A DNA stretch of 64,000 nucleotides from Clostridia bacterium (GCA_017522795.1 JAFWXZ010000070.1:6202-70201); one strand, 5' to 3'. Counted from the stretch's first letter, positions 6,839 to 64,000 are shown. Notes: a model not told the origin generated them from the letters alone. Program-made: numbers and translations.

Positions 6839-6943
6839 AGTTCAGCGGATTGTACGATAGGGTACTTTCCCATTATTTTTTGATCAATTTAATCGCGCTT
6901 TGTGGCGCGGAATTTGAAATATATTTATACAAGGATGAAAGAC

Positions 6944-7741: not shown

Positions 7742-7972
7742 GTTCTTGATAAGACCGAGGGCGATAAGGTTATCACCAAGAAGTCCTTTGACGTTGAGAT
7801 CAACGGCCAGACCTACACCTACTCCAACCTTAAGATTCTCTGGAAGGTTGAGAACGAAGGTCAGGCTATCGCAGAGTTCAAGCACACTCCTTATGTTGAC
7901 AAGGCTGAGAAGCCCGCAAAGAAGGAGACCGCTCCCTCTTCTCTTTACAATTCCGCATCCAAGGTAGACCTT

Positions 7973-32364: not shown

Positions 32365-32382
32365 TTTTATATGCCTCCAAAA

Positions 32383-33465
32383 TTATTTTTCATCAAGCTT
32401 TTCAAGCATATCCCATACGCCGAGCATATACATAATGCCGAGCGCGCGGTCGTACAGACCGTAGCCGGGACGCACGTTTCCGGGCTTCTCATCCCAGAGA
32501 TGTCTGCCGTGGTCGGGACGGATGTAGCCGTTATAGCCACAGTCGTGGTAAGCCTTGAGGATCTCAAGAATACCTGTGTCACCGTCGCAATCTCTGTGGC
32601 TCGCCTCGGAGAAGTCGCCATTGGGGAAGTGCTTTACGTTTCTGATATGAGCGAAAGCGATTCTGTCGCAGTGCTTTCTTACGATCTCCGCAACGTTGTT
32701 CTCAGGGTTAGCGTTAAGGCTACCAGAGCAGAGAGTAAGACAGTTGTAGGGATCGTCAACCATAGAGAGGAAGCGGTCGATGCTGGGACCGTCAACAAGA
32801 AGACGGGGCAGACCGAAGATATCCCATGGCGGATCGTCCATATGAATAGCCATCTTGATGTCGCACTCGCGGCAGGTGGGCATAATTGCCTCGAGGAAGT
32901 ACTTAAGGTTAGCCCAAAGCTTCTCGTGGTCAACGTCTGCGTAATCCTTGAAGAGCTGATCAAGCTTTGCCATTCTCTCGGGCTCCCAGCCGGGGAAGGA
33001 CATATTGTACTTCTCGGTGAAGTCGAGAATGTACTGAGCCATTGCGTTGTAGTCATCCTGGATCATACCCTTCTCGTAGAAGAGAGCGGTAGAGCCGTCG
33101 CCAACCTCGTGGAAGAGATCGGATCTCGTCCAGTCGAAGATGGGCATGAAGTTATAGCAGATTACCTTTACGCCGAACTTGGAAAGGTTGCGGATGCACT
33201 GCTTGTAGTTTTCAATATACTTATCTCTGGTGGGCAGACCGATCTTGATGTCGTCGTGAACGTTTACCGACTCAACAACGTCACCGTTAAAGCCGTGTGC
33301 GTGGAGCTGATCCATTACAGCGGCTATCTCCTCCTCGGTCCAGATCTCGCCGGGCATCTTGCCGTGAAGCGCCCAAACGATACCCTCAACACCGGGAATC
33401 TGCTTGATGTCAGACAGCTTGATACGGTCATTACCCTCGCCGTACCAACGGAATGTCATTTGCAT
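32383..33465 (-). CDS. uxuA: Mannonate dehydratase
   Basis: N-terminus MQMTFRWYGEGNDRIKLSDIKQIPGVEGIVWALH is typical UxuA. 360 aa. Confidence 0.93.
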   Translation of the reverse strand: MQMTFRWYGEGNDRIKLSDIKQIPGVEGIVWALHGKMPGEIWTEEEIAAVMDQLHAHGFNGDVVESVNVHDDIKIGLPTRDKYIENYKQCIRNLSKFGVKVICYNFMPIFDWTRSDLFHEVGDGSTALFYEKGMIQDDYNAMAQYILDFTEKYNMSFPGWEPERMAKLDQLFKDYADVDHEKLWANLKYFLEAIMPTCRECDIKMAIHMDDPPWDIFGLPRLLVDGPSIDRFLSMVDDPYNCLTLCSGSLNANPENNVAEIVRKHCDRIAFAHIRNVKHFPNGDFSEASHRDCDGDTGILEILKAYHDCGYNGYIRPDHGRHLWDEKPGNVRPGYGLYDRALGIMYMLGVWDMLEKLDEK

Positions 33466-33490
33466 AATTTTTTCTCCTTTTCGGATTTAA

Positions 33491-46503: not shown

Positions 46504-46702
46504 ATATATAAACTCCATACCCATAATTCCAATATTAATTATGTATAAGATGTCTGAAAACTAACACTTCGTGCAAAAAAAACATTTTTTTGTGCTAAAT
46601 AATAGAAAAATTATCAAAAATATGTTATTATTATTTTAGATAATTATACATTTTTTACAATTTGTGAAATTACGACAAATTTTTGAAAGGGATTTTGATA
46701 AA

Positions 46703-49105
46703 ATGGATATCAATTCAATCGTCTCGGGACTTACGCTTGAACAAAAGGCAGCTCTGCTTCAGGGCTGGACTACCTGGACCACCCTTGATCTTAGCGAAAA
46801 GGGAATACCCCCTATGTTTATGTCCGACGGTCCCGTTGGACTTCGTAAGCAGGCAGGCGCAGGCGACCACCTTGGTCTTAATGCATCTGTACCTGCAACC
46901 TGTTTCCCAACTGCCGCAACTATGGCAAACAGCTGGGACGTATCTCTCGGCGAGGAGCTTGGCAGAACGCTCGGTGCTGAGGCTGCTGCAAACGACGTTC
47001 ACGTCGTACTTGGCCCCAGTCTTAATATAAAGCGTAGCCCCCTTTGTGGCAGAAACTTTGAGTATTTCTCGGAGGACCCCTACCTTTCGGGAAAAATGGC
47101 CGCGTCCTATATAAAGGGTATACAGTCCTATGGCGTAGCCGCTTGCCCCAAGCACTTTGCTGTAAACTCGCAAGAGCTTCGCCGTATGTCTATGGATTCT
47201 GTGCTTGATGAGAGAACTATGCGTGAGATATACCTCACAGGCTTTGAGATGGCAGTAAAAGAGGGTGGGGCAAAGGCTCTTATGTCCTCTTACAATATGG
47301 TAAACGGTACCTATGCTAACGAGAATGCTCATCTTTTATCGGACATACTCCGCGGTGAGTGGGGCTTCGACGGCTACGTTGTAACCGACTGGGGTGGAGA
47401 TAACAATCACACCGAGGGTGTAAGAGCAGGAGGAAACCTTGTAATGCCAGCACCCGGTCCCGACTGCGCAATCGGTCTTATCGAGGACGTAAAGGCAGGA
47501 AAGATTGATGAGAGCGTTCTTGATCAGCGTGTTGAAGAGCTTTTAAGAATAGTATTTATGACCCAAGAGGACGTGGCAAAGCAGCCTAAGTCCTTTGACG
47601 TAGAGGCTCATCACGCTGTTGCAAGAAGATGTGCAGAGGGTAGCATCGTTCTCCTTGATAACGACGGTATTCTTCCTCTTAACGAGGGTGCGAGCGTTGC
47701 TATAATCGGTGATTTTGCCAAGACCCCCAGATACCAGGGTGCAGGCTCGTCACAGGTAAATGCCACAAAGATAGATAACCTTTACGACTCTCTTGAAAAG
47801 TATCTTAATATTACAGGCTATGCCCAGGGCTTTGACAGAAAGGATCCCAATCCTATTGACAAGCTCATCTCTGAGGCTGTTGAGGTTGCGAAGAAGGCAG
47901 AAACCGTCCTTCTCTGCGTAGGTCTTGACGAGATCCTTGAATCCGAGGGTATGGACAGACTTCATATGGAGCTGTCAAAGAGCCAGCAGAAGCTTATTAA
48001 CGAGGTATGTGCAGTAAACAAGAACATAATTCTCGTTCTCTCGGGTGGCGCGCCCTTCGTTATGCCCGACAGAAGTCTTTACAGAGCCGCAATTCACGGC
48101 TATCTCGGCGGTCAGGCAGGCGCAGGCGCTATGGCTGATGCTATTATCGGTAAGGTAAATCCCTCTGGCAAGCTTAACGAAAGCTGGCCTCACAGATTAG
48201 AGGATAACCCCTCTTACCCCTACTTCCCAAGCAAAGAGCGAACTGCAGAATATCGCGAGGGTCTTTTCGTCGGCTACCGTTATTATGATACGGCGGGTAA
48301 GAGTGTTCGCTATCCCTTCGGTCACGGTATCAGCTATACCGACTTTGATTACTCTGACATCAAGGCAGATAAAAACAGCGTAAGCTTTACCATTTCAAAC
48401 GTAGGTAAGGTAGACGGCGCAGAGGTTGCACAGGTTTATATCTCCTGCAAGAACGGCAACGTTTATAGACCCAAGAAGGAGCTGAAAGGCTTCGCAAAGG
48501 TGTTCCTGAAGGCAGGCGAGAGCAAGACAGTCACCGTAGAACTTGACGATAAGGCGTTCCGTTATTACAATGCAGAAAAGAATTGCTGGGAGATCGAGGA
48601 CGCAGATTATGAGATAATCGTCGGCTCAAGTGTTTGCGACGTAAGACTTTCCGCAACCATACATATCGACGGTATGAAATGCGAGAGATCTGCACCCGAG
48701 TGCTACTACAATGCAGACATAGAAAACGTGTCCGATAGCGACTTTGAAAAGCTGCTTTTAAGACCTATACCCGATGGCAGCTGGAGTGGACTTTTGACCG
48801 AAAATGACGCAATATGTCAACTTTACTATGCAAAATGTGGTCTTGCAAGGCTTGTTTACAAGATTTTGACTAACATAAAAAACAAATCTGAGGCAAAGGG
48901 CAAACCTGACCTTAACGTGCTGTTTATCTACAATATGCCCTTCAGAGCTATCGGTAAAATGGCAGGTGGAATGGTATCTCGCAAGATGGTTGACGATATA
49001 CTCTTTATTGTAAACGGTCACTTCTTCCGCGGACTTGGCAGAGTAATCGCCGATTTCTTCCGTAATTTAAGATCAAATTCAAAATTCGTCGCAAATATTA
49101 AGTGA
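46703..49105 (+). CDS. Glycoside hydrolase family 3 beta-glucosidase-like enzyme (canonical domain order, cytoplasmic) with a hydrophobic C-terminal tail
   Basis: GH3 motifs GLRK and the nucleophile region GYVVTDWGG. FnIII-like domain (FGHGISYTDFDYSD). The ATG at 46703 (MDINS) is preferred over the track start. No signal peptide. Confidence 0.88.
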   Translation: MDINSIVSGLTLEQKAALLQGWTTWTTLDLSEKGIPPMFMSDGPVGLRKQAGAGDHLGLNASVPATCFPTAATMANSWDVSLGEELGRTLGAEAAANDVHVVLGPSLNIKRSPLCGRNFEYFSEDPYLSGKMAASYIKGIQSYGVAACPKHFAVNSQELRRMSMDSVLDERTMREIYLTGFEMAVKEGGAKALMSSYNMVNGTYANENAHLLSDILRGEWGFDGYVVTDWGGDNNHTEGVRAGGNLVMPAPGPDCAIGLIEDVKAGKIDESVLDQRVEELLRIVFMTQEDVAKQPKSFDVEAHHAVARRCAEGSIVLLDNDGILPLNEGASVAIIGDFAKTPRYQGAGSSQVNATKIDNLYDSLEKYLNITGYAQGFDRKDPNPIDKLISEAVEVAKKAETVLLCVGLDEILESEGMDRLHMELSKSQQKLINEVCAVNKNIILVLSGGAPFVMPDRSLYRAAIHGYLGGQAGAGAMADAIIGKVNPSGKLNESWPHRLEDNPSYPYFPSKERTAEYREGLFVGYRYYDTAGKSVRYPFGHGISYTDFDYSDIKADKNSVSFTISNVGKVDGAEVAQVYISCKNGNVYRPKKELKGFAKVFLKAGESKTVTVELDDKAFRYYNAEKNCWEIEDADYEIIVGSSVCDVRLSATIHIDGMKCERSAPECYYNADIENVSDSDFEKLLLRPIPDGSWSGLLTENDAICQLYYAKCGLARLVYKILTNIKNKSEAKGKPDLNVLFIYNMPFRAIGKMAGGMVSRKMVDDILFIVNGHFFRGLGRVIADFFRNLRSNSKFVANIK

Positions 49106-51400: not shown

Positions 51401-51982
51401 ATGGAAAAAATCAAAGATTTATGGAATAAATTTGCGCAAAGCCATCCCAAGCTTTCGCAATGGGTAAGAGAAGGCGGGCTTTTCGTTATCGTAAGTAACG
51501 TAATCACCGTTTTTAAGTATTTGCTCCTCACATTTTTGCCCGCGGCGTTTGCCTTTATGGGCAGTCAGGATTTCGGATTTCCCGGTATTGACATTACTCT
51601 CTTCGGCATTGAGTTCAAGTGGTATATAATCGGATACGGTGCAGATCAGGGCGGCGCGGCATACTTCACCGCATATATGATAGCTATGGTTATCGGTGAG
51701 GTTATAAACTTCTTTATCCAGCGCAAGTATGTGTTCCGTTCCAACGGTAATATTGTCCGTCAGGGTGCCTGGTATTTCCTTGCCTTCTGCGTAGTCACCT
51801 GCGTGGTTAATTCCATTAACTGCATCTGGGCGGCCGTGGCAGGTCACTTCGTTGATCCTTGGCTTTATAACATCGGTACAACCGTTCTTAACGGCGGTGT
51901 TTCTATGGTAGTTTTCTTTGTTGTTAATAAAATAGTTTTTGAAAGCAAAAAGGAGGAGGAAAAAGAAAAGTGCGAGGAATAA
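51401..51982 (+). CDS. GtrA-like family membrane protein
   Basis: 4-TM protein with the FIQRKYVFRS motif typical of GtrA-like proteins. RBS AGGGAG upstream of the ATG at 51401. Confidence 0.7.
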   Translation: MEKIKDLWNKFAQSHPKLSQWVREGGLFVIVSNVITVFKYLLLTFLPAAFAFMGSQDFGFPGIDITLFGIEFKWYIIGYGADQGGAAYFTAYMIAMVIGEVINFFIQRKYVFRSNGNIVRQGAWYFLAFCVVTCVVNSINCIWAAVAGHFVDPWLYNIGTTVLNGGVSMVVFFVVNKIVFESKKEEEKEKCEE

Positions 51983-52926
51983 CAAAAATATCCTTTGTTA
52001 TAGTACTTTTTTGTCTGATGCTTTCCTGCACGTTGCTTACGGGATGTGAGACTATAAATACACTCAAAGAAAAGTTTGAGGAGATGAGTCAGAATAACGG
52101 TTCTTCGGTAGACGATGACAACCTGTCAGACGGAGATCAAAACGGTGATACGGATGGCGATGATATTCATATCAATGGCAGCTGTACACACAGTCTCAAA
52201 AAGCTTGATTGGGTAGCCCCCACCTGCATCGCTGAAGGTAAGCGCGGCGCCTTCCAATGCAAGCTCTGCGGCAAAATCTTTGAATATTTTGCCGAAAAGG
52301 ATGGGCTTGTAGAGGTTAAGGAGCAGAGCAGTATTCCGAAGAAGGATCATACCGTAAGCAATAAATACGGCATACGTCTTAAATCGGGAGTCAGTAAGGC
52401 AACGAGCTTTTCCGACTATGAAATCGTCACGGTGTGCAATACCTGCGGCACAGGATTTGCGGTCGGGGAGAGCGATCTTAGACCCTTTACTCCATCTACT
52501 AAGGTTCTGTATGACGACGTCACCCCTGTAAGCTTTACGCGTGACACGGTTGACGGTTTAGTTTCAACCACTTATATCTTTCCTTCATCTACCAAGGTCG
52601 GTATTCACAATTGGGTATATCACAACAATGATAGCGGAAAGCTTGACGCAAACACAAAGGTTCCGTTCTCGGCAAATACCGATAGGTATATTCTGATGAT
52701 GGTAAAAAATAACTCGGGCGAGAAAGTCACCTTTAAATACGGAGCGGAATACTATTCCACCTATTGCTGGTCTGAGCCCGTCACCGTTGAAGGCGGAGAG
52801 TATCAGGCGTTTGTTCTGAAGCTTAACTTTAGCGGCTCGGATTACGCCTGCTATCACACCATACAGCTTCTTGACTCCATATCCAATGACGTCAGTCTGA
52901 CGTTCAGCGGCTTTTACGTAAATTAA
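51970..52926 (+). CDS. Lipoprotein A: His-Cys3 module(s) plus shared beta-sandwich domain
   Basis: GTG start after AGGAGGAGG. Lipobox LLTGC. Module CTHSLKKLDWVAPTCIAEGKRGAFQCKLCGKIF. C-terminal domain with PFSANTDRY...VTFKYGAEYY...LTFSGFYV, paralogous to 55226 and 53930. Confidence 0.75.
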   Translation: MRGITKISFVIVLFCLMLSCTLLTGCETINTLKEKFEEMSQNNGSSVDDDNLSDGDQNGDTDGDDIHINGSCTHSLKKLDWVAPTCIAEGKRGAFQCKLCGKIFEYFAEKDGLVEVKEQSSIPKKDHTVSNKYGIRLKSGVSKATSFSDYEIVTVCNTCGTGFAVGESDLRPFTPSTKVLYDDVTPVSFTRDTVDGLVSTTYIFPSSTKVGIHNWVYHNNDSGKLDANTKVPFSANTDRYILMMVKNNSGEKVTFKYGAEYYSTYCWSEPVTVEGGEYQAFVLKLNFSGSDYACYHTIQLLDSISNDVSLTFSGFYVN

Positions 52927-52939
52927 GGAGGTAATAGCG

Positions 52940-53842
52940 GTGAAAAAAATACTCGTAAAAGCAATTGCCTTAATTACATTGCTTACCTGCCTTACCTCTC
53001 TTCTCGGAGCGACCGCCGTTTCTAATAAAACCAATGATGGAGATAACAGCGTAAAGCTCAATGCATCATATGAAATAATGAGCTTCAACATCCGTACCGA
53101 CGTGGACGGAGGACAAAGAGCCTGGTCCTATCGGGGAGAGTATCTGATGGATTACATAAGAGAGCATGGCGCGGACGTGGTTGCTCTCCAGGAGGTAAAG
53201 CGCTCTCAGTTTTCTTCTATAAAGGCATCTCTCTCCGATGTGTATCAAATGATATATTTTGAGAGAGATACAGCGGCGGATCCCGAGGGACTTGCTATCC
53301 TGTATTCATATGAATTCGAGCTTGTTAAAGGGGATGTCTTCTGGCTCAGCGAAACTCCCGATGTGATGTCTAAGGGCTGGGACGCCGATTATCACAGAAT
53401 ATGCGTTCACGCTCTGCTCCGCAGCTGCTACGGCAACTATCTTGACGTATACAATACCCATCTTGAATGGGCGGGCGAGAGGGCGAGAAACGAAGGACTC
53501 AGGCTTATCGTTGACAGGGCGTCTGAAAGCCAATATCCATCAATCATATGCGGAGACTTCAATGCAACCGAGGATGAGGATACCTACGATATTATCGGAA
53601 GCAGATTTAACGACACCGCAAAGCTTGCTCCGGTAAGCGACAGCGGATGGACTGCCCACGATTGGGGACTTTTTGATCCCGAATGGTCAAAGCCTATCGA
53701 TTTTATTTTTACAAGTAAGAATATTAAGGTCGATAAGTTTGATATTTTACAGGACGTTATCTCCGATGGCGTATATTACTCCGATCACTACGCCGTGACT
53801 GCTAAGCTGAATTATGATTACGTTCTTAAATATGTAGATTAA
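52940..53842 (+). CDS. Secreted endonuclease/exonuclease/phosphatase (EEP) family protein
   Basis: Signal peptide. EEP motifs VVALQEV, GDFNATEDE and SDHYAV. Confidence 0.85.
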   Translation: MKKILVKAIALITLLTCLTSLLGATAVSNKTNDGDNSVKLNASYEIMSFNIRTDVDGGQRAWSYRGEYLMDYIREHGADVVALQEVKRSQFSSIKASLSDVYQMIYFERDTAADPEGLAILYSYEFELVKGDVFWLSETPDVMSKGWDADYHRICVHALLRSCYGNYLDVYNTHLEWAGERARNEGLRLIVDRASESQYPSIICGDFNATEDEDTYDIIGSRFNDTAKLAPVSDSGWTAHDWGLFDPEWSKPIDFIFTSKNIKVDKFDILQDVISDGVYYSDHYAVTAKLNYDYVLKYVD

Positions 53843-53929: not shown

Positions 53930-55213
53930 ATGAACAAAACGAAAAGAATTTTCGCTGTGACCGCTATGCTTATCGTGCTTATTGCATGCGCTATGCTGGC
54001 GGGATGCTCACCCGATTCCGGTGACACCGGGTTTTCTCACGTTCACACTCTGACCAGAGTCGCGCCCAAGGCAGCTACCTGTCTTGAGGACGGAAACAGA
54101 GAGTACTACATTTGCAGCGGATGCAACAAGACATTCGGCGATGCCGAGGGCAACGCTCCCATCACAAGTGAAAAATACGTTATTCCCGCAAAGGAGCATA
54201 ACGTAGCAATGCACAGTGAGAAAAAGGCGACTTGCTTTTCCAATGGAATCAAGGCATATTACGAATGCAGAAACTGTGGCACACTCTTCAGAGATGCTGA
54301 CGGTATGTTTGAGATAAGCGCTCCCGCTTCTATTCCCGCGACATCTCATTCGCTTACCAAGGTGGAGGGAAAGGCAGCTGTAGGATTTACGTCCGGTTGG
54401 CAGGAGCATTATGCCTGCGATAACTGTGACAAGCTCTATAAGGATGCCCTTGGAACTATAGAAACTACCTTTGATGAGATCAAGATCGTTCCCGTGCTTA
54501 CTGATTTTGAGTACAAGATAGCATTCACTCCCGCGGCAAATATTGATAGCGGCTCAAATTACATATCTGCATCCTACGTTGAGGTCAACGGACTTCCCGC
54601 TACGGAATTCACCCTCAAGGCAGGCACTCCCGCAGATACCGAGGCTTACGCGTGGATCCACCAGACTGTATCTCAGACTATGCCCCAGGGAATAAATCTC
54701 AGAATTCCCACCTTCAGCGGTAAGGAAAAGAAGCTGTCTCTCACAGTTACCAATAGCGGTTCCGAGGATATATCCTTCCGCTTCTACGCTGAAAACTACG
54801 GAGATAAGGGCGGCGTTAACGTTACTGTTGGCGCAGGAGAAACCAAGACCGTAGAGTTCACCATCAATCCCGGATCATCCACCGGATGTAATCTTCCTAT
54901 CAAGATTCTGAGCAGTGTAAATCAGGAGACCAAGCTTACAATGCAGGGCTTCTTCTACTGCGAGGGAGAGGTTGACGGCATTTCTCTGTACAAGGATGCG
55001 GAAAAGAAGACCTTTAAGGTTGGCGACAAATTTAGCACCGACGGACTTGTAGTTAAGGCTAAGGGCTCAAGCTATGACGAGGTCGTTATTGCAAATTATA
55101 TGACGGATATCGAGGAGGGCTACGTATTCACCGCAGAGGACGTCGGTACAAAGACCGTCACCGTTGCGTACGGCGAATACACTACCACCTACGAAATCAC
55201 TATTGAATCCTAA
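53930..55213 (+). CDS. Lipoprotein B: three His-Cys3 modules plus shared beta-sandwich plus Ig-like domain
   Basis: Lipobox LAGC. Modules HVHTLTRVAPKAATCLEDGNREYYICSGCNKTF and EHNVAMHSEKKATCFSNGIKAYYECRNCGTLF, plus a degenerate third. ISFRFYAENYGDKGGVNVTVGAGE core. Terminal Ig-like domain (KTVTVAYGEYTTTYEITI). Confidence 0.8.
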   Translation: MNKTKRIFAVTAMLIVLIACAMLAGCSPDSGDTGFSHVHTLTRVAPKAATCLEDGNREYYICSGCNKTFGDAEGNAPITSEKYVIPAKEHNVAMHSEKKATCFSNGIKAYYECRNCGTLFRDADGMFEISAPASIPATSHSLTKVEGKAAVGFTSGWQEHYACDNCDKLYKDALGTIETTFDEIKIVPVLTDFEYKIAFTPAANIDSGSNYISASYVEVNGLPATEFTLKAGTPADTEAYAWIHQTVSQTMPQGINLRIPTFSGKEKKLSLTVTNSGSEDISFRFYAENYGDKGGVNVTVGAGETKTVEFTINPGSSTGCNLPIKILSSVNQETKLTMQGFFYCEGEVDGISLYKDAEKKTFKVGDKFSTDGLVVKAKGSSYDEVVIANYMTDIEEGYVFTAEDVGTKTVTVAYGEYTTTYEITIES

Positions 55214-55225
55214 GGAGTGAAGATT

Positions 55226-57028
55226 ATGAGTAAAATTATTAAGAAAATTATAGCATCTTCGCTTTTAGCCGCAACCCTACTGATAGGAATCGGCGCGCTC
55301 AGTAGCTGTAACGTTGATTGGGATTACTGCCAGCATAAGCTGGAGGAGATACCAAAAAGTGAAGCAAGCTGTATGAAGGTCGGCAAGAAGACCGCCTATC
55401 AGTGCGTAAAATGCGGAAAGCTCTTTGCCTACGGCTATCTCAACGGCAAAGACGGTACAAAGGGCATTTATGAGATCAGCAGTCAGGAAATGCTTGACTA
55501 TTCTAACCACAAGATCGGAGATCTTTACGGTGATCTCAAGGCAGATATGACAACCTTTGATGCATCCAGCCTTGAGGACTTCTCTGTTTGGTCGCACTGC
55601 TCCGAGGAGGGCTGCGGCGAGGCGTTTGAGGTAGAATTACAGAATCTTATTCCATTTGCTCCCTGTGACAACACCAGCGGAAACGCAGATTACGTTGTAG
55701 TAGGCGAGGAAACGGATGCTACGAGATTTGAGATTCCCGCAAATACCCAGTCGGGCAAGTGTATCACAATATATACCGGTGGTAGCAAAATGAATACCGC
55801 CACAAACAAGATCCCCTTCTCCGCAAATACCGACCGTCACGTTATCCTCTTCTTCCACAATGACGGAAATCAGGACGTTAACGTCAGATACGGTACCGAA
55901 TTCTACGGCGAGAGAGTAGGCGTTGACGTGACAGTTCCCGCAAACGGCTACGCTACTGCTTATCTTAATATTAATATGACTCAGTCCAACAGCGACTGCT
56001 ATCACGAGCTGTATATAAATAGCGACATTAAGGAGAGCTTCGGACTTACAATTTCCGGCTTCTATTACAACGAGGCGAAGCTTCAGAGCGTTAAGATCGG
56101 AGAGTATCCCAAGGTCGAGTATGCTATCGGTGAGGTATTCAGCACCGAGGGACTTGAGGTGGTTGCAAAGTTCGGAGATATTGAGCGCAAGCTTGATGCG
56201 GATGATTACACCCTCGTTCTTAACAACAATAAGCCCATTACCGAGCCTCTCACAGAAGAGGATGACACGGTTTACGTAATCTACAAGAACAAGCAGACCA
56301 GCTTTACCATCAAGGTTCAGAGATATGAGCAGACAGTAAATCTCGTTGCCGCTACCTTTGCAGACGGCACCGCATCTGCGGTTCTTGATAGAAATTCTAT
56401 CATTCCTGCGGATATCGTTGCTACCAACGGTAAGACCATCGAGTACTTCATTGACCAGTACGGCGCGAAGTATGTTCCCGGCGAGGGCAGAGTTCCCGCG
56501 TATAACGCAACTCTTTCTCCCGTATATAGCGGAGTAAGCTTCAGCGATAACTACGCTCTCGGTGCAGACGTAAGTGTAAGCAGCACCTCGCACGGTGGAT
56601 CTAAGGGATCTCTCGTTGACGGTGTTAATTCTGTCAATTCCGATGCGGACGGAAGATGGTCCTCTAAGTCGAACTATGAAACTGCTACTCCCGACGAGGA
56701 AAACAGAGAGTGGGTAATGGTAGACCTTGGCGAATCGAAGTCTATCTGCCAGGTAGTTCTTTATCCCAGAGTATACGGCGGTTACTTCCCCGAGACCTAC
56801 GAGATTCTTGTTTCTGAGGACGGCGAAAAATGGAAGAGTGTAGTATCTGTTGAGTACGACGAGCTGGCATCTAAGGGTTCAGCTCTCGGAAGATGGAATG
56901 GCTTTGAAAGCGTGAACGCGCGCTACGTAAAGGTTGTTGCCATCAAGATGACCGATGACGGCGGCGGAGCAGGCTATATCTTCCAGCTTTCCGAAATAGA
57001 AATTTATGGCGAAACTTCGGGAAATTAA
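55226..57028 (+). CDS. Lipoprotein C: His-Cys3 module(s) plus shared beta-sandwich plus Ig-like domain plus F5/8 type C (discoidin) domain
   Basis: ATG 8 nt after AAGGAG. Lipobox LSSC. Module CQHKLEEIPKSEASCMKVGKKTAYQCVKCGKLF. PFSANTDRHVILFF...VNVRYGTEFYG...LTISGFYY. C-terminal discoidin-like REWVMVDLGESKSICQVVLYPR. Confidence 0.8.
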   Translation: MSKIIKKIIASSLLAATLLIGIGALSSCNVDWDYCQHKLEEIPKSEASCMKVGKKTAYQCVKCGKLFAYGYLNGKDGTKGIYEISSQEMLDYSNHKIGDLYGDLKADMTTFDASSLEDFSVWSHCSEEGCGEAFEVELQNLIPFAPCDNTSGNADYVVVGEETDATRFEIPANTQSGKCITIYTGGSKMNTATNKIPFSANTDRHVILFFHNDGNQDVNVRYGTEFYGERVGVDVTVPANGYATAYLNINMTQSNSDCYHELYINSDIKESFGLTISGFYYNEAKLQSVKIGEYPKVEYAIGEVFSTEGLEVVAKFGDIERKLDADDYTLVLNNNKPITEPLTEEDDTVYVIYKNKQTSFTIKVQRYEQTVNLVAATFADGTASAVLDRNSIIPADIVATNGKTIEYFIDQYGAKYVPGEGRVPAYNATLSPVYSGVSFSDNYALGADVSVSSTSHGGSKGSLVDGVNSVNSDADGRWSSKSNYETATPDEENREWVMVDLGESKSICQVVLYPRVYGGYFPETYEILVSEDGEKWKSVVSVEYDELASKGSALGRWNGFESVNARYVKVVAIKMTDDGGGAGYIFQLSEIEIYGETSGN

Positions 57029-57455: not shown

Positions 57456-60400
57456 ATGAAAGTTGTATTATCATTTATTTCTAAATTACTACTCGTTATT
57501 TTCGTAATACTTTACGGTGTAGTAAACGTTGGCGGTCAGATCGCTGCTGCCAATGCAAGCGTAATTTCCAAGTTCCTCGGCCAGGACGGATTTAACATGG
57601 TCAAGGACGAGACCCTTGGTGCAGATGAGGAGCTTGACACCGAGTACTTCAAGTCCGAATACTCAAGCGTAAGCGACCTGAAGGCTAACGGTGAGAGGCT
57701 TACTCAGCTCGTTATGGAGGAAGGCGCGGTTCTTCTCAAGAACGACAACAGTGCGCTTCCCCTTTCCTCAACCGATAAGATCAGTCTCTTCTCCGCCTCC
57801 TCGGTAAGCCCCATTTTCTCAGGCTACCGCGAGCACAACGATAAAAGCAGCGGTACAACCAACCTTCTTGACGGCTTTACCGCAGCAGGTCTTGATGTAA
57901 ACCGTGAGCTTTACAACTGGTACAAGTCCAGCAACTACGGACGTCAGTACATCAACGGCCCTGGCCTATATGCTATCGTTAACATCAACGACGCTCCTTG
58001 GAGCGCAATTCCCGACAGCGCAAAGTTTGCTGAAGGCTACAATACCGCTGTGTTTGTTCTCTCCCGTATAGGCGGTGAGGGTACCGATAACCAGATGTTT
58101 GATAACGGCGAAAGCAACAATAGCAGAGGCTATGAGTGGGATGGCTACAATGGCAACTATCTCGCTCTCAGTGAGGATGAAAGATCCGTTCTTCAGGGGC
58201 TTAAGGCTGCCAAGGACGCAGGTCAGTACGACAAGATCATCGTTCTCTGCAACTTCACCAACCAGGTAATGCTCGATTTTGTTGACGATCCCGCATACGG
58301 CGTTGACGCAGTTCTTTACAGCGGTGGCTTGGGCTCCAAGGGCTCGGTAGCTATTGCCAACATCCTTAAGGGTACTGTTAACCCCTCGGGTAAGCTTTCC
58401 GACACCTTCTGGAAGAATCATTATCTCAACCCCGTACACGCAAACTACGGTCAGTATAAGCTTGATACCTCTAAGATCGGTGACTACTACGCATACTCCT
58501 CCTACATTTATTTTGATACCAACGGCAAGGAGGTTTCCACCAGTGCAGGCAACCAGAACGGATACGTGGTATATCAGGAGGGTATTTACGTAGGCTACAG
58601 ATACACCGAAACCAGATACGAGGATAAGGTTATGGGCACGGGTAATGCAGGTAACTTCAATTACTCTGCCGCTGTTTCCTATCCCTTCGGCTACGGTCTT
58701 TCCTACACCAGCTTTGAGTATTCGGATTACAGCGTAATCTACAATGCAGAGACCGATTCTTACGATATCAGCGTTAAGGTTAAAAACATTGGCAGCGTTG
58801 CAGGTAAGGAGTCTGTTCAGATCTTCCTGCAGAAGCCCTATACCGAGTATGACAAGCAGATGGGAGTTGAGGCTGCGGCAGTTGAGCTTGTAGCTTACGA
58901 CAAGACCGATCTTCTTGAGCCCGGCGCAGAGCAGACGCTCAATATGTCGGTTGAAAGACGCGATTTCGCAAAGTACGATTCCTACGGTCACAAGACCTAT
59001 ATTCTCGAGGAAGGCGAATACTACCTGGCGGCAGGTAAGAACGCGCACGATGCCGTAAACAACATTCTTGCGGCAAAGGGCTTCTCTACCGCTGACGGTA
59101 TGGACGAAGCAGGTAATGCAAATCTTACCGCTCTCGTTGGATTTGCCGATTCCGAAAACGACAAGAGAATCACATCCGACGATCTTCTTCTCTATTCCAC
59201 CGCTAAGGTTAACGTTTACTCCGATAAGGATGCGGACGGAAACCTTGTTGGCAAGCTTATCACCAATCAGTTTGACAACGCAGATCCCAAGATCTTTGAC
59301 GGTGGTGTAAACTACGGTGAGAATGCTCTTGGCGGCGCCTGGACCTACGTTACCAGAAACAACTGGGCAGGCACCGTAAAATATGCTGTAGCTGTTGACG
59401 AGGCAACAGGCTACGTAAGCAGCTATGACAGACTTAACAACTTCGTAAGACTTGTAAAGACGGATGCTATCAAGGCAGGACTTGACTTTGATATTCTTGA
59501 TGAGGCTGCAAGCGACGTTGCATACCCCACCTTTGGATCTACCCAAACCGCATGGCAGCTTATCGACCTCAGGGTTGATGAGAACGGCAATCCCATCGCT
59601 TACAACGATCCCCGTTGGGATGAGCTTCTTGACCAGCTCTCCTGGGACGATTACGTAGCTATTCTCGCGGGCGGTCTTTACAACACTCCCGGTCTTTCCT
59701 CTATTTCCGCGCCCACTTCTAACACCTACGACTCAGACCTCGGTGTTATTTCCAAGTACAATATGTACCCCTCGGGCCTTGCTACAAAGCTTAACGATCC
59801 TGACAAAAACACATCTCCCGCGACCTATGTTGACAACGGCATCGTTGCTGCAACCCGCAATCTTGACCTCATTTACGAATACGGTATTCAGTGGGGCGAG
59901 GACTGTCTGTGGGCAGGCTTTAACGGTCTCTATGGTGCAGGCGCCAACATTCACAGAAGCCCCTATCTCGGCAGAAGCTACGGATATATTTCCGAGGACG
60001 GCTTCCTCTCCGGTATGACTCTCGCAAAGATGAATCTCGGTATGGAGACCAAGGGCGCGTATATGCTTGCAAAGCACTGCGTTCTTAATGAACAGGAGAC
60101 CAACCGCTGTGGCGCAGCGTCCTGGGCAAACGAGCAGTCCATCCGTGAGATATACGTAAAGGTATTTGAGGTAGCTATCGAGGAGGGCTCTCTTCAGGGT
60201 GTTATGACCTCTCTTAACCGTATCGGAACAACTCCTGCTCCTCACCACACCTTCCTTAACGAGGTTCTTCGTTATGAGTTTGGTATGACGGGCTACAACG
60301 TAACCGACTCCGGTATGCCTTATATGAACACCGCAAACTGCGTATGGGCAGGTAACGATCTTCCTATCAACGGCGTATCTCACACAGTTCCCGATATTCC

Positions 60401-60644
60401 CGAGACAGGCTACGGTCATCTTGCTCAGGCGGCAAGAGATTGCGTACACAACGTTCTCTACACCGTTGTAAACTCTAGCGCTATGAACGGCTTCTCATCC
60501 GATATGAGAGTAGTTCGATTCCAGCCCGAGTGGGAATACTTCCTCGGAGTAGCAACCGACATTATCAACGTTGCTATAATTCCCGTAGTAGTATTCTATA
60601 TCGCAATTGAAATATGGGTAGGCATTAGAAGAAGATTCTTCTGA
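57456..60644 (+). CDS. Glycoside hydrolase family 3 protein, domain-permuted, with N- and C-terminal TM anchors
   Basis: N-terminal TM. GH3 alpha/beta-sandwich domain first (EEGAVLLKNDNSALPL ... FGYGLSYTSFEYSD). Next an FnIII-like domain. Then the barrel domain with the nucleophile region GMTGYNVTDSG. C-terminal TM (IIPVVVFYIAIEIWVGI). Confidence 0.82.
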   Translation: MKVVLSFISKLLLVIFVILYGVVNVGGQIAAANASVISKFLGQDGFNMVKDETLGADEELDTEYFKSEYSSVSDLKANGERLTQLVMEEGAVLLKNDNSALPLSSTDKISLFSASSVSPIFSGYREHNDKSSGTTNLLDGFTAAGLDVNRELYNWYKSSNYGRQYINGPGLYAIVNINDAPWSAIPDSAKFAEGYNTAVFVLSRIGGEGTDNQMFDNGESNNSRGYEWDGYNGNYLALSEDERSVLQGLKAAKDAGQYDKIIVLCNFTNQVMLDFVDDPAYGVDAVLYSGGLGSKGSVAIANILKGTVNPSGKLSDTFWKNHYLNPVHANYGQYKLDTSKIGDYYAYSSYIYFDTNGKEVSTSAGNQNGYVVYQEGIYVGYRYTETRYEDKVMGTGNAGNFNYSAAVSYPFGYGLSYTSFEYSDYSVIYNAETDSYDISVKVKNIGSVAGKESVQIFLQKPYTEYDKQMGVEAAAVELVAYDKTDLLEPGAEQTLNMSVERRDFAKYDSYGHKTYILEEGEYYLAAGKNAHDAVNNILAAKGFSTADGMDEAGNANLTALVGFADSENDKRITSDDLLLYSTAKVNVYSDKDADGNLVGKLITNQFDNADPKIFDGGVNYGENALGGAWTYVTRNNWAGTVKYAVAVDEATGYVSSYDRLNNFVRLVKTDAIKAGLDFDILDEAASDVAYPTFGSTQTAWQLIDLRVDENGNPIAYNDPRWDELLDQLSWDDYVAILAGGLYNTPGLSSISAPTSNTYDSDLGVISKYNMYPSGLATKLNDPDKNTSPATYVDNGIVAATRNLDLIYEYGIQWGEDCLWAGFNGLYGAGANIHRSPYLGRSYGYISEDGFLSGMTLAKMNLGMETKGAYMLAKHCVLNEQETNRCGAASWANEQSIREIYVKVFEVAIEEGSLQGVMTSLNRIGTTPAPHHTFLNEVLRYEFGMTGYNVTDSGMPYMNTANCVWAGNDLPINGVSHTVPDIPETGYGHLAQAARDCVHNVLYTVVNSSAMNGFSSDMRVVRFQPEWEYFLGVATDIINVAIIPVVVFYIAIEIWVGIRRRFF

Positions 60645-60806
60645 TAAATAAAAAATGCCGATAAGCTCGGCTCAAATAATACGACAAGCAACTCCGCGCG
60701 GTATATTCCCCCTCGCCGAGGGGGAACGACCGCAACACCTTTTAAAACCTAACGGCACGTGCCGCAAAAATAAAACAAAAAAACAAAAGGATAAAAGGAG
60801 AAAAAT

Positions 60807-63800
60807 ATGGAAAAGTTCAAGAAAATCTTGAGAACTGTCCTCATTCTGTCTGTTATCGTCGGCGTAGTATGTATTGCTACGTCCTGCGACGTAATAGGCG
60901 GAATCTTCGGTGGTCATACTCATAATCTGACCATCGTTGAAAAGATCGACGCAACCTGTACCGAGGCAGGTCAGGAAGCATACTTCAAATGTGACGGATG
61001 CGATCAGCTCTTCGCAGATATCGAAGGCAAGAACGCTATTGAAGCTCCTGTGGCTATCGCTCCTCTCGGTCATAAGATCGTAGGCGTAGCGGGCACAGAG
61101 CCCACCTGCACCGAACCCGGTATCGCAGACTGCTTCAAGTGCTCCAGATGTGAAGCTGTTTTTGCGGATGCAAAGGGCGAGAATAAGATCGAGGCTCCCG
61201 TAACCAGCGCCCCCCTCGGCCACTCTCTCGTTAAGACCTCCGCAAAGGCTGCTACCTGTACTGCTGACGGCAACAACGAATACTACACCTGCTCCGTATG
61301 TAAAAAGGTTTACAAGGATGCAGATGCAAAGACCGAAACCACTGCTGCGGCTGAGATCATCAAGGCAAGCGGTCACGCAGAGGTAAAGCACGATGCAAAG
61401 GCTCCCACCTGTACCGAAAAGGGTTGGGACGCATACGTGACCTGTAAAAACTGCGATTACACCACCTATGCAGAAAAGGCAGCTCTCGGTCACGACGAGA
61501 TCAGCCACGATGCAAAGGCTCCCACCTGTACCGAAAAGGGTTGGGACGCATACGTGACCTGTAAAAATTGCGATTACACCACCTATGCAGAAAAGGCAGC
61601 TCTCGGTCACGACGAGATCAGCCACGATGCAAAGGCTCCCACTTGTACCGAAATCGGTTGGGATGCATACGTGACCTGTAAAAACTGCGATTACACCACC
61701 TATGCCGAAAAGGCAGCTCTCGGCCACAAGCTTACTAAGACCGAGGCAAAGGACGCTACCTGCCTTGAGGACGGTAACGTAGCATACTGGACCTGTTCCT
61801 CCGTCTGCAAGCAGATCTTCTCCGATGCAGAGGGCAATAACGTTATCACCAACACCATAATCCCCGCAAAGGGACACACCCTTTCCGAAACCCTTATCGT
61901 AGAGGGCGCAGTTAAGAATTACGAGCCCGGCTCAAGCTTCGATGCATCCAATCTTGTAGTAAAGCTTGATTGCAAGGATTGCGATTATACCAAGGAGGTT
62001 ACCGGCTATACTCTCAGCAAGACAGAGAACCTTCAGCCCTCTGATAACGCGGTAGTTGTTACATATGTAGAGGACGGTAAGACCTATACCGCTTCTATAG
62101 CTATTGTAGTAGTTCACGTACACGTTACCGGCGATCTTGTTCCCGCCGTTGCTCCCAACTGTACCGAAACAGGTACTCTTGCATACTATGAGTGCGAAAT
62201 TTGTAAGCATAAGTTTGCAGATAAGGACGCAACCGAGCTTTACGAGTCGGTTGTTGTTCCTGCTCTCGGTCACGACGAGATCAGCCACGAGGCAAAGGCT
62301 CCCAACTGTACCGACATTGGTTGGGACGCATATGTGACCTGCAAAAATTGCGATTACACTACCTACGTAGAAAAGGCAGCTCTCGGTCACTCCACCTCTA
62401 AGGTTGATGCAAAGGCTCCCACCTGTACAGAGGAAGGCTACGAGGCATATTACACCTGTAGCGGCTGTGATAAGCTCTTCTCTGACGCAGATGCTAAGAA
62501 TATTATCCCTGCTCCTATCGTTGTAGGCGCTCTCGGCCACGACGAGATCAGCCACGATGCAAAGGCTCCCACCTGTACAGACATTGGTTGGGACGCATAC
62601 GTGACCTGTAAAAACTGCGATTACACTACCTATGCCGAAAAGGCAGCTCTCGGTCACAATGCTACCAAGACCGAGGCTAAGGAATCCAGCTGTACCGAAG
62701 CAGGTAATAACGCATACTGGACCTGCTCTGTTTGCGGTAAGGTTTACTCCGACGAGGCTTGTACCGTTGAGACCTCGGTTGAGGCTGAGACTCTTCCCCT
62801 TGCAAAGCATGAAACCAATCTTCTCTCAGATGCAAACGGTCACTGGTACGATTGCGCTAACTGTGACTATGTAACCGATAAGGAAAACCACAGCGGCGTC
62901 GCTTATCCCGATGCAGCTCCCAAGTGTACAGTTTGTGACACCGAGTTCGGTAAGGCAAGCTGGGACGGCTGGGTTCTCTTCAGACCCGGTATCGTAGAGG
63001 TTGCAGGCGGCTCTGTTACCTCCGCATCTCATGTAACTGTTAACGGCATTATGGCAAGCCAGTACGTATTCGGCGCAGGCTCTGCAGGCTCCGACAGCAC
63101 TATCTGGACTATGTCCGATGCTTCTGATTACAACAACGGAATGTATCAGGTAAGAATTCCTACCGTTGGCGATAACGAGAGATATATTTACCTCTACGTT
63201 TCCAATGATGGCGACACCGACATCAGCTTCAGAATCTACTCTGAAAACTATGGCGACAAGGGCGGCGTTGACGTAACTCTTGCTGCTGGCGAGAGCGGCT
63301 GGTTCAAGTATTCGGTACACACCGGTACAACCATTGGTTCTAACGTAAACCTTAAGCTTCTCTCCGATCTTGCTTCTGAGACCACCGTTACTATCTATGG
63401 CTACTGGCATCTTGAGACAGAGGAGATAGCGAACCTTGATATTGCTAACAGAAGCGAAATCAAGCTTTCCTACCGTGCAGGCGAAAAGTTCAGCCTTCCC
63501 GAGCTTATTCTCGTCTCCAATATTTTCTCTAATAACGAGAACGACCTTCTTAACAATGGCGGTGCTGTAGAAAAGTATTATATTGCAAGCAACTTTACAG
63601 TTTCCGGCCTTGAGATCGGACAGACCCTTGAGGCAGGCAATTACACAGTAACCGTATCCTTTGGCGGTAAGAGCGTTGAGCTTCAGATTGTCGTAAGCTC
63701 CCATACTCACGCTCCCGAGCTTGTTGCAAAGAAGCCCGCAACCTGTACTGAGGACGGTTATGAGGCATATTACATCTGTAATGTAGACGGCTGCGGTCAG

Positions 63801-64000
63801 CTCTTCGCAGATGCAGAGGGTAATACTCCCATCTCTTCTATCACTACTCTTCCCGCAGGACATGTTGAAAGCGCTGCTATCCCGGGTCATAAGGCAATCT
63901 GCCCTAGATGCGGAGCAGAGAGCGGCGAGGTTCTTGATCCCGACGGATGGGTACATTTCGCACCCGGCGTTGTTTGGTCCGACTACTATGAGGGTATCTA
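60807..64000 (+). CDS. Giant lipoprotein D (over 1064 aa, 3' end outside the window): at least 15 His-Cys3 modules, two Ig-like domains, at least one shared beta-sandwich domain
   Basis: Not in the supplied track because it has no stop in the window. RBS AAAAGGAG 6 nt upstream of the ATG at 60807. Signal plus lipobox (ILSVIVGVVCIATSC). The frame is open for 1064 codons with host-typical codon usage. ISFRIYSENYGDKGGVDVTLAAGE is paralogous to lipoprotein B. Confidence 0.88.
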   Translation, partial: MEKFKKILRTVLILSVIVGVVCIATSCDVIGGIFGGHTHNLTIVEKIDATCTEAGQEAYFKCDGCDQLFADIEGKNAIEAPVAIAPLGHKIVGVAGTEPTCTEPGIADCFKCSRCEAVFADAKGENKIEAPVTSAPLGHSLVKTSAKAATCTADGNNEYYTCSVCKKVYKDADAKTETTAAAEIIKASGHAEVKHDAKAPTCTEKGWDAYVTCKNCDYTTYAEKAALGHDEISHDAKAPTCTEKGWDAYVTCKNCDYTTYAEKAALGHDEISHDAKAPTCTEIGWDAYVTCKNCDYTTYAEKAALGHKLTKTEAKDATCLEDGNVAYWTCSSVCKQIFSDAEGNNVITNTIIPAKGHTLSETLIVEGAVKNYEPGSSFDASNLVVKLDCKDCDYTKEVTGYTLSKTENLQPSDNAVVVTYVEDGKTYTASIAIVVVHVHVTGDLVPAVAPNCTETGTLAYYECEICKHKFADKDATELYESVVVPALGHDEISHEAKAPNCTDIGWDAYVTCKNCDYTTYVEKAALGHSTSKVDAKAPTCTEEGYEAYYTCSGCDKLFSDADAKNIIPAPIVVGALGHDEISHDAKAPTCTDIGWDAYVTCKNCDYTTYAEKAALGHNATKTEAKESSCTEAGNNAYWTCSVCGKVYSDEACTVETSVEAETLPLAKHETNLLSDANGHWYDCANCDYVTDKENHSGVAYPDAAPKCTVCDTEFGKASWDGWVLFRPGIVEVAGGSVTSASHVTVNGIMASQYVFGAGSAGSDSTIWTMSDASDYNNGMYQVRIPTVGDNERYIYLYVSNDGDTDISFRIYSENYGDKGGVDVTLAAGESGWFKYSVHTGTTIGSNVNLKLLSDLASETTVTIYGYWHLETEEIANLDIANRSEIKLSYRAGEKFSLPELILVSNIFSNNENDLLNNGGAVEKYYIASNFTVSGLEIGQTLEAGNYTVTVSFGGKSVELQIVVSSHTHAPELVAKKPATCTEDGYEAYYICNVDGCGQLFADAEGNTPISSITTLPAGHVESAAIPGHKAICPRCGAESGEVLDPDGWVHFAPGVVWSDYYEGI
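61389..61727 (+). repeat. Near-perfect 117-bp tandem repeat x 2.9 inside the lipoprotein D gene; dispersed copies at about 62271-62390 and 62538-62657
   Basis: Units start at 61389, 61506 and 61623. Each encodes HDAKAPTCTE(K/I)GWDAYVTCKNCDYTTYAEKAALGHDEIS. Only a few substitutions between units. Confidence 0.92.

Follow-up and report, generated by a model that had tools for sequence, protein, structure and literature searches.

We analysed a 64,000-nucleotide (nt) stretch of DNA from Clostridia bacterium (GCA_017522795.1, JAFWXZ010000070.1:6202-70201), hereafter the window, with a focus on a large gene at its end that is missing from the list of open reading frames (ORFs). Positions 60807-64000 on the plus strand almost certainly hold the first 1064 codons of one protein-coding gene of about 1600 codons, the rest of which lies beyond the window edge. 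This edge-cut gene probably encodes a giant surface lipoprotein with a stalk of Cys3His modules, and the three long minus-strand ORFs listed over it are antisense shadows. The locus had been pointed out in an earlier note made from the sequence alone, the claims of which are taken up below where our results bear on them.

An open plus-strand frame at the window edge

Translation of the plus strand from the ATG at 60807 gave 1064 codons with zero stops up to the window edge at 64000. Over the same positions, the other two plus-strand frames contain 37 and 76 stops and the minus-strand frames contain 58, 64 and 2. The probability that a random stretch of 1064 codons is open is about (61/64)^1064, or approximately 1e-22. 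A ribosome-binding site (RBS), AAAAGGAG, could be read off the plus strand at 60793-60800, 6 nt upstream of the ATG. The uninterrupted frame, the RBS and a lipoprotein signal peptide had all been claimed in the earlier note, and our retranslation and pattern searches agree with it. Together with the orthologue, the substitution pattern and the homologues described below, the open frame places the 5' two-thirds of the gene (1064 of about 1614 codons) at 60807-64000.

The ORFs listed over this segment are the three minus-strand ORFs, at 60672-61877, 61932-62810 and 62826-63956, and an out-of-frame plus-strand ORF of 80 amino acids (aa) at 62632-62874. The gene itself is unlisted because the program omits ORFs that run off either end, which is its documented behaviour. 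The earlier note had named exactly these three minus-strand ORFs. It had also called the gene the largest in the window, and this is true only because of the full length of about 1614 aa; the visible 1064 codons barely exceed the neighbouring gene for a glycoside hydrolase (GH) of family GH3 (1062 aa) and carB (1056 aa).

Evidence for the coding strand

The codon usage of the two strands was compared using a log-odds score trained on 14 other genes of the window. The score was 0.62 for the plus frame and 0.27 for the codon-aligned antisense frame, while every other frame scored below -0.8. We also searched public contigs of up to 185 kb for the continuation of the gene. The plus-strand protein P0001 is 98% identical over 100% of the query and ends in a stop codon after 1614 aa, such that the stop expected beyond the window edge was found by extension in near-identical sequences. 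The gene order around P0001 matches that of the window from 49.8 to 64 kb, and the next gene, on the other strand, codes for a rubredoxin. Two further contigs have alleles of 1582 and 1315 aa in the same synteny. In the contigs L001, L003 and L004, the plus-strand gene is the sole call over the locus.

Substitutions between the window and these three contigs were concentrated at the third codon position of the plus frame. The numbers of changes at codon positions 1, 2 and 3 were 6, 8 and 31 for L001, 43, 40 and 125 for L003, and 3, 4 and 18 for L004, so that third positions account for 31 of 45, 125 of 208 and 18 of 25 changes, respectively. Read in the plus frame, the ratios of synonymous to nonsynonymous changes were 26:16 (L001), 84:68 (L003) and 16:8 (L004), as compared to 6:36, 14:138 and 2:22 in the antisense frame. 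The ratio of nonsynonymous to synonymous substitution frequencies (dN/dS), estimated with the method of Nei and Gojobori (NG86), was 0.16 for the plus frame and 2.0-2.3 for the antisense frame. For the neighbouring GH3 gene the ratio was 0.066. These values indicate that the plus-strand gene evolves under purifying selection.

Database searches with both translations gave a similar contrast. At least 7902 homologues of the plus-strand protein were retrieved (E <= 1e-5), whereas the longest minus-strand ORF had two matches, P0121 (E 4e-91) and P0122 (E 2e-33). Both are antisense mis-calls of a true gene broken by a gap. In the scaffold of P0121 (L047, 5836-6831), a run of undetermined bases (N) within the tandem repeats divides the true gene into a 287-aa N-terminal fragment (MEKFKKILRTVLL...) and a 1364-aa remainder that starts from an internal GTG, and the antisense ORF was called in the gap. 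P0122 (L048, 1527-3379) comes from a scaffold interrupted by 100 N, and the strand opposite to it has an open frame in which nine Cys-repeat motifs are found. Because both matches oppose the Cys-repeat frame on N-gapped scaffolds, the database support for the minus frame reduces to wrong-strand annotation. The risk that automated annotation picks the wrong strand, which the earlier note had raised, is thus real and has affected two public metagenome annotations.

Antisense shadow frames

The length of the minus-strand ORFs follows from the codon usage of the gene. An antisense frame that is codon-aligned with a sense gene receives its stops only from the sense codons TTA, CTA and TCA. The present gene contains 0, 0 and 2 of these codons, respectively, in 1064 codons (1.9 per 1000), as compared to 8.0 per 1000 in 14 other genes of the window, and the minus-strand ORFs are so long because these sole antisense-stop codons are almost absent. 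All three are codon-aligned with the plus frame, at offsets that are multiples of 3 (61875 - 60807 = 1068 = 3 x 356), and the aligned frame is broken at two points only, by the plus-strand TCA codons at 61932 and 62826. The first ORF (60672-61877, 401 aa) extends from the gene into the intergenic region, while the second (61932-62810, 292 aa) and the third (62826-63956, 376 aa) end in stops that are the complements of TCA at 61932-61934 and 62826-62828. None of the three has a Pfam match. Their products are rich in Gly, Leu, Val, Ser and Cys; the earlier note had listed Cys, Gly and Val, to which Leu and Ser should be added. Its claim that the ORFs are codon-aligned antisense frames of the real gene is borne out by the offsets, the dN/dS ratios and the homologues, all of which indicate that they are non-coding shadows.

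Other long shadows in the window, likewise without Pfam matches, are located on the minus strand at 57966-59546 over the GH3 gene and at 24516-25904 over carB. The principle is the same, with a more extreme depletion of the critical codons here, and the shadows at the window end come to light only because the true ORF reaches the edge. As an annotation matter, the combination of edge-ORF omission and shadow ORFs is ordinary. The gene that the earlier note called attention to is real; the significance given to its omission was overstated, since this is a documented property of the lister and shadow ORFs are common in the window. In practice, edge-touching ORFs need to be added to the ORF track, and long codon-aligned antisense ORFs should be treated as shadows.

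Overlapping ORFs were also seen at two other sites. A 576-aa plus-strand ORF without a Pfam match (31783-33513) lies over the minus-strand genes for a short-chain dehydrogenase (31519-32364) and the UxuA mannonate dehydratase (32383-33465), both of which match Pfam strongly, and is a further long shadow. In the segment 6902-9251, a 722-aa minus-strand ORF (6965-9133) overlaps plus-strand ORFs at 6902-7741 and 7973-9223 (416 aa), and none of these is matched by Pfam.

Predicted signal peptide and Cys3His stalk

The N-terminus of the protein, MEKFKKILRTVLILSVIVGVVCIATSC, contains a putative lipoprotein signal peptide of 27 aa (60807-60887) with the lipobox I-A-T-S-C27. We applied a rule of the PROSITE PS51257 type, which comprises a basic n-region, a hydrophobic h-region and the pattern [LIVMFWSTAG](2)-[LIVMFYSTAGCQ]-[AGS]-C with the Cys within positions 15-35. 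The match, which is a pattern match only, begins at residue 23 and places the lipobox Cys at residue 27, with K/R in the first 9 residues. The signal peptide is kept in the orthologues and, like the RBS and the domain order, in homologues with as little as 45-53% identity.

The signal peptide is followed by the first part of the stalk (aa 37-345, 60915-61841), in which a regular-expression map on the orthologue located seven modules of the type H-x11-C-x3-G-x6-C-x2-C. These are arranged as three long modules of about 50 aa, three short modules of 39 aa (CKNCDYTTYAEKAALGH) and one long module; the long ones terminate in F-x-D-x2-G-x3-I-x-A-P. The three 39-aa units correspond to a tandem repeat of 117 nt, identified with Tandem Repeats Finder at 61389-61727 as 2.9 copies of 96% identity. 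A putative beta domain of about aa 346-436 (61842-62114) is inserted next in the stalk. We read it as immunoglobulin (Ig)-like because it resembles the corresponding domains of the C-terminal cassettes, and a local alignment was obtained with the Ig-like end of the paralogue at 53930. The second part of the stalk (aa 437-660, 62115-62786) contains modules 8-12, mapped in the same manner, and includes the direct-repeat family D1 with copies at 62253 and 62520. A linker (aa 661-716, 62787-62954) with two CxxC knuckles, CANCDY and CTVCD (Cys 683/686 and 707/710), completes this region.

In the full-length orthologue there are 59 Cys and 40 His residues and 14 modules that fit H-x(5-14)-C-x(2-4)-G-x(4-9)-C-x(2-5)-C. 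Of these, 12 are located in the first 650 residues, while the last two cassettes are preceded by module 13 and module 14, respectively. When 36 triple repeats taken from many proteins were aligned, the residues H3, C15, G19, C26 and C29 were invariant in every unit. An AlphaFold2 (AF2) model of aa 188-310, computed from this alignment, had a predicted local distance difference test score (pLDDT) of 95.8 and contained short beta-strands only.

Predicted C-terminal jelly-roll cassettes

The stalk is succeeded by a domain without a Pfam match at aa 717-871 (62955-63419), for which AF2 and Foldseek predict a beta-jelly-roll similar to those of carbohydrate-binding modules (CBMs) of families 4, 6 and 22. 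It is followed by a predicted Ig-like domain at aa 872-965 (63420-63701), which forms the second half of the AF2 model and is Big_3-like by sequence. The remaining segment (63702-64000) is colinear with residues 966-1064 of P0001 and holds module 13, a CxxC knuckle and the start of a second jelly roll (DPDGWVHFAPG...), which is cut by the edge. The model of aa 717-965, built with 31 homologous modules, had a pLDDT of 95.2 and a predicted template-modelling (TM) score of 0.89. The best Foldseek matches in the PDB were to CBMs and to the CBM portions of glycanases, namely CBM4 (3k4z, 3p6b, 1gui), CBM22 (2w5f), CBM6 (1uxz, 1w9s), CBM16 (2zex) and CBM35, with E values of 1.5e-5 to 1e-3 and a probability of 1.0.

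The full-length orthologue contains three such cassettes, one of which is complete in the window. Each consists of a CxxC knuckle, a jelly roll and an Ig-like domain, preceded in the second and third cassettes by a Cys3His module. The terminal Ig-like domain of P0001 (aa 1538-1613) matched Big_3 (PF07523) with 20.2 bits against a cut-off of 21.2, and several homologues have precomputed PF07523 matches, listed without a position. The equivalent C-terminal domain of the paralogue at 53930 (aa 357-424) matched Big_3 with an E value of 0.0014 and 19.3 bits against the same cut-off.

The last two jelly-roll cassettes are of two sequence types within one species, 'DPDGWVHFAPGVVWSDYYE...' in P0001 and P0003, and 'HWVIFRPEIAV...' and 'NWVFYNITTN...' in P0002 and L005. 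In the C-terminal third, beyond the window edge, the types separate L001 and L004 from L003 and L005, and the window has the first type. This suggests that cassettes may be swapped in addition to the change in stalk length.

Length variation among strains

The 10 kb upstream of the gene could be aligned without gaps between the window and four public contigs at 98.2-98.3% DNA identity, while the gene lengths in the same species were 1614, 1582, 1504 and 1315 aa. The 1504-aa allele (L005, from the metagenome-assembled genome (MAG) that represents the species in GTDB) has one 39-aa unit as compared to three in the window, and the difference between 1582 and 1504 aa is 78, or 2 x 39 aa. The 1315-aa allele lacks window residues 201-500, a deletion of 299 aa. 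Its junction unit is chimeric, with the first half of unit 4 joined to the second half of unit 9, as homologous recombination between the repeats would leave. Homologues at a greater distance (45-53% identity) contain 8-9 modules, none of them a 39-aa unit, and the stalk has therefore expanded in this lineage.

Relatives of the Cys3His module

No Pfam family was found for the window protein at E <= 0.01, and no NCBIfam family scored above its cut-off for either the window protein or P0001. The scans returned sub-threshold fragments only (Big_3, eukaryotic zinc fingers and proS), and the copies of Pfam and NCBIfam that we searched hold no dedicated model for the Cys3His module. When repeats were searched in isolation, the Pfam matches were scattered over 84 unrelated families. 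The zinc-finger and zinc-ribbon families among them (zf-POGZ, Zn_ribbon_13, Antiterm, DnaJ_CXXCXGXG) were rejected as candidates, as the repeats align with them by the CxxC knuckle only, for example to profile positions 21-42 of 43 in zf-POGZ. A literature search for the literal motif strings APTCTE and CSRCDYTTY gave no match.

Among PDB sequences there was a single relative, the immunoglobulin A (IgA) protease of Thomasclavelia ramosa (9qa6_A), with a profile E value of 0.0094 and the motif aligned. A phmmer search aligned aa 37-169 of the query with residues 852-969 of 9qa6_A at E 7.2e-8. This region has been named ZBD1 (PMC12237041) and CTD2 (PMC12415215), and was modelled in both papers by AlphaFold only. 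Tetrahedral His/Cys zinc sites were predicted between small beta-sheets, no structural homologue was found, and the isolated CTD2 was a fully extended rod by small-angle X-ray scattering (SAXS) (PMC12237041, PMC12415215). Site 8 of the protease is of the Cys3His type, like the window modules, while its other sites are His2Cys2 (PMC12237041).

The ZBD1 and ZBD2 (CTD2 and CTD4) domains of this M64 protease resemble the window protein in the motif (HNLTLVAAKAATCTTAGNSAYYTCDGCDKWFADATG versus HNLTIVEKIDATCTEAGQEAYFKCDGCDQLFADIEG), in the predicted joining of small beta-sheets by His/Cys metal sites and in their location on an extracellular Gram-positive surface protein. They differ in having 3 and 2 sub-domains with mostly His2Cys2 sites, in the C-terminal sortase anchor and in being dispensable appendages of an enzyme. 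In the window protein, 12 modules follow one another (14 are present in the full protein) and every one is of the Cys3His type, the predicted lipid anchor is N-terminal and there is no catalytic domain; near-identical tandem copies and CBM-like heads set it further apart.

To survey the family, a profile of the triple repeat was compared with 1.84 billion cluster representatives. It matched 31604 representatives at E <= 1e-3, 17101 at E <= 1e-10 and 4941 at E <= 1e-30. The longest of these proteins has 7169 aa, and as many as 38 stretches were matched in a protein. Partner domains in the matches that we inspected were BspA-type leucine-rich repeats (LRRs), Big_2, cohesin and dockerin. Relatives of the repeat occur in gut and rumen bacteria of the genus Faecalibacterium (including F. 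prausnitzii ATCC 27768) and the families Oscillospiraceae, Acutalibacteraceae and Christensenellaceae.

Cys-repeat relatives were also seen on contigs assigned to a Candidatus Methanomethylophilaceae archaeon MAG (L037), a Bacteroidaceae MAG (L009 and L029) and a Coriobacteriaceae MAG (L045). We could not tell whether these occurrences reflect true spread, horizontal transfer or binning error.

Attention was first drawn to the module in 2025, when it was an unexplained extra part of a single IgA protease; in the present gene, 12-14 copies of it make up the main body of the protein, and their number differs among strains. In gut and rumen Clostridia, Faecalibacterium among them, the module is very abundant and occurs in combination with LRR, cohesin, dockerin and enzyme domains. 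With a curated model and a single crystal structure that includes an analysis of the metal, tens of thousands of surface proteins would gain an annotation. We consider the window protein a further member of this recently noticed and still uncharacterised domain family, which makes it mildly novel and overturns nothing.

Proposed function and alternatives

We propose that the gene encodes a lipid-anchored surface protein of an uncultured species of gut Clostridia ('Eubacteriales'), in which the lipobox Cys would be followed by a beta-hairpin stalk of 12 modules with one inserted beta domain. On the domain order and the homology, a surface lipoprotein with a rod-like stalk is a likely product. 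Each His/Cys set would hold one structural zinc and so staple successive hairpins into a stiff rod, and we regard such zinc stapling as more likely than not. As judged from the SAXS data on the homologous CTD2 and from the domain order, the rod may carry the jelly-roll heads from the membrane past the cell wall. The heads would there bind a glycan that is processed by the putatively membrane-anchored GH3 protein and the paralogue with the F5/8 type C domain encoded in the same cluster; we regard glycan binding as slightly more likely than not. Recombination between near-identical units would reset the length of the rod among strains.

Such a protein would combine traits of the Periscope Proteins with those of CBM-bearing surface proteins. 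Periscope Proteins, exemplified by SasG/Aap, Rib and the SHIRT arrays of Sgo_0707, are defined by length variation due to repeat number (Whelan et al. 2021, PMC8201768). The window protein shares with them the surface anchor, the tandem array of small, highly similar domains, the coding DNA of which is nearly the same (117 nt, 96%), the variation in repeat number among strains and the putative binding region distal to the anchor. It differs in being built from His/Cys hairpins rather than G5-E, Rib or SHIRT domains, and in the N-terminal lipid anchor, by which the polarity is reversed. Moreover, near-identity is confined to 3 of the 12 stalk modules, the others having diverged, and the rod shape is assigned here by homology. 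With the beta-jelly-roll CBMs (CBM4, CBM6, CBM16, CBM22 and CBM35) it shares the best structural matches and the location of the gene in a glycoside-hydrolase neighbourhood, but there is no sequence-family match, the identity is about 10% and the domain is not joined to a catalytic domain. More tentatively, gut Clostridia could possess a very large family of extracellular rods stapled by zinc, in which the Cys3His hairpin of 39-50 residues is the repeating unit. The window protein would then be a lipid-anchored Gram-positive 'periscope' for glycan capture, in which repeat recombination sets the stalk length and with it the distance of the CBM-like heads from the anchor.

Several points weigh against this interpretation. 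The case for the protein and its close relatives is computational throughout. A scan of 60400-61000 detected no sigma-70-like promoter in the 162-nt gap (60645-60806) between the GH3 gene and the ATG. A Foldseek search of the PDB with the three-repeat model gave no solved structure that resembles it (best E 0.42, TM-score 0.19, antibody and Ig noise). The zinc sites of the IgA protease are themselves only predicted, and its solved structures end at residue 876 (PMC12237041). As for the heads, the jelly-roll fold is generic, the top TM-scores were only 0.45-0.57 on single-domain targets at about 10% identity, and no CBM sequence family was recovered, with none for P0001 in Pfam even at E <= 1. 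Finally, all length alleles were taken from short-read metagenome assemblies, which fail at repeats, and some of them could be artefacts, because public assemblies collapse or break at the repeats (N gaps, L047 and L048).

The heads might alternatively be adhesins that bind proteins or cells, such as the host mucosa or other bacteria, or act as a phage decoy, with the GH3 gene merely a neighbour. The Foldseek list that contains the CBMs also includes the jelly rolls of ephrin-receptor, MAM/meprin and Cry-toxin domains, the absence of a CBM sequence family is compatible with such a role, and elsewhere the Cys3His repeat is joined to BspA-type LRRs, cohesin, dockerin and an IgA protease, which are contexts of protein interaction or cleavage. 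We nevertheless consider adhesion unlikely, given that the best structural matches are dominated by CBM families 4, 6, 16 and 22, that the gene belongs to a conserved cluster with GH3 and F5/8 type C (CBM32-like) domains, and that genes for glycoside hydrolases are numerous in the window, two of them of family GH2 and two of GH3.

A second alternative to structural zinc stapling is that the His/Cys modules form a regulated or sacrificial metal array for zinc capture, buffering or sensing, or that they are held by thioethers or disulfides rather than zinc. In favour of this, the full protein offers at least 14 potential sites, and with 31604 cluster representatives the family is a very large one; a regulation by zinc was raised as a possibility for the IgA protease (PMC12415215), and the metal occupancy of the modules is predicted throughout. 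A fully coordinating Cys3His set that shares a tight hairpin with an invariant Gly is, however, typical of structural zinc knuckles, and the sole Pfam similarities of the modules are to zinc-ribbon and zinc-finger knuckles. The odd number of three Cys per module argues against intramodule disulfides, and none of the 24 Cys of the IgA protease forms a disulfide (PMC12237041). This alternative therefore appears improbable, and structural zinc remains our preferred reading of the modules.

An assembly chimera, or a pseudogene decaying from mis-joined repeats, would be conceivable in view of the difficulty that 117-nt repeats of 96% identity pose to short reads and of the N gaps found exactly there in two public scaffolds. 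It is made very improbable by the 1064 codons, which are colinear without gaps in the independent assembly L001 and intact in frame in five further contigs, by the purifying selection on the plus-strand ORF and by the signal peptide, RBS and domain order kept in the distant homologues. That the minus-strand ORFs are the real genes and the plus frame is accidental can be dismissed with near certainty, since against their length, their start codons and the two matches of the longest stand the gap-broken Cys-repeat frames opposite both matches, the dN/dS of 2.0-2.3 with synonymous changes in only 22 of 218 changed codons, the lower codon score, the lack of Pfam matches and the exclusive plus-strand calls in L001, L003 and L004. 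Both of these explanations are effectively excluded by the sequence comparisons, which leaves the edge-cut plus-strand gene as the reading of the locus.

Neighbourhood of the gene

The gene is the last visible member of a plus-strand cluster, the upstream genes of which are conserved in all orthologous loci. They include those for a LytTR response regulator (49117), a GHKL kinase (49806), a GtrA-like protein (51335) and a small hydrophobic protein of 133 aa without a Pfam family (57042). They also include the gene for the GH3-family glycoside hydrolase located directly upstream (57456-60644, 1062 aa), which was identified with Pfam and is syntenic throughout. A protein with an Exo_endo_phos domain in Pfam is encoded at 52940-53842. 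Three lipobox paralogues of the window protein are located in the same cluster on the plus strand. The one at 53930-55213 is the most similar (BLASTP E 5e-47; phmmer with the jelly-roll module E 1.4e-34), followed by the one at 55226-57028, which carries the F5/8 type C domain (E 5e-11 and 7e-11, respectively). Paralogy to these two had been stated in the earlier note, which missed the third, at 51970-52926 (phmmer with the jelly-roll module E 2.3e-6).

In the gap between the GH3 gene and the window gene, a GC-rich inverted repeat, ccccctcgccgaggggg, is located at approximately 60709-60726 and is not followed by a T-run. The scan of 60400-61000 gave two terminator-like sites, both on the minus strand only, and an Rfam search of the 5' intergenic region returned sub-threshold noise only (GP20-a with 21 bits against a cut-off of 47, and snR8).

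The Pfam domains of the upstream GH3 protein are arranged in the order GH3_C (92-381), Fn3-like (452-529) and GH3_N (797-953), and in the second GH3 protein encoded in the window (46664-49105) this order is reversed, with GH3_N ahead of GH3_C. The GH3 orthologue in L047 is hydrophobic at both ends in the translation as read, which suggests that the GH3 protein may be anchored in the membrane.

Besides the two GH2 and two GH3 genes, the window contains nrdD, the pyrimidine (pyr) operon, alaS and trpS, and it reads as normal chromosomal DNA of an anaerobic Firmicute. In GTDB, its closest genome is the MAG of an uncultured 'Eubacteriales bacterium' (JAZNZI01).

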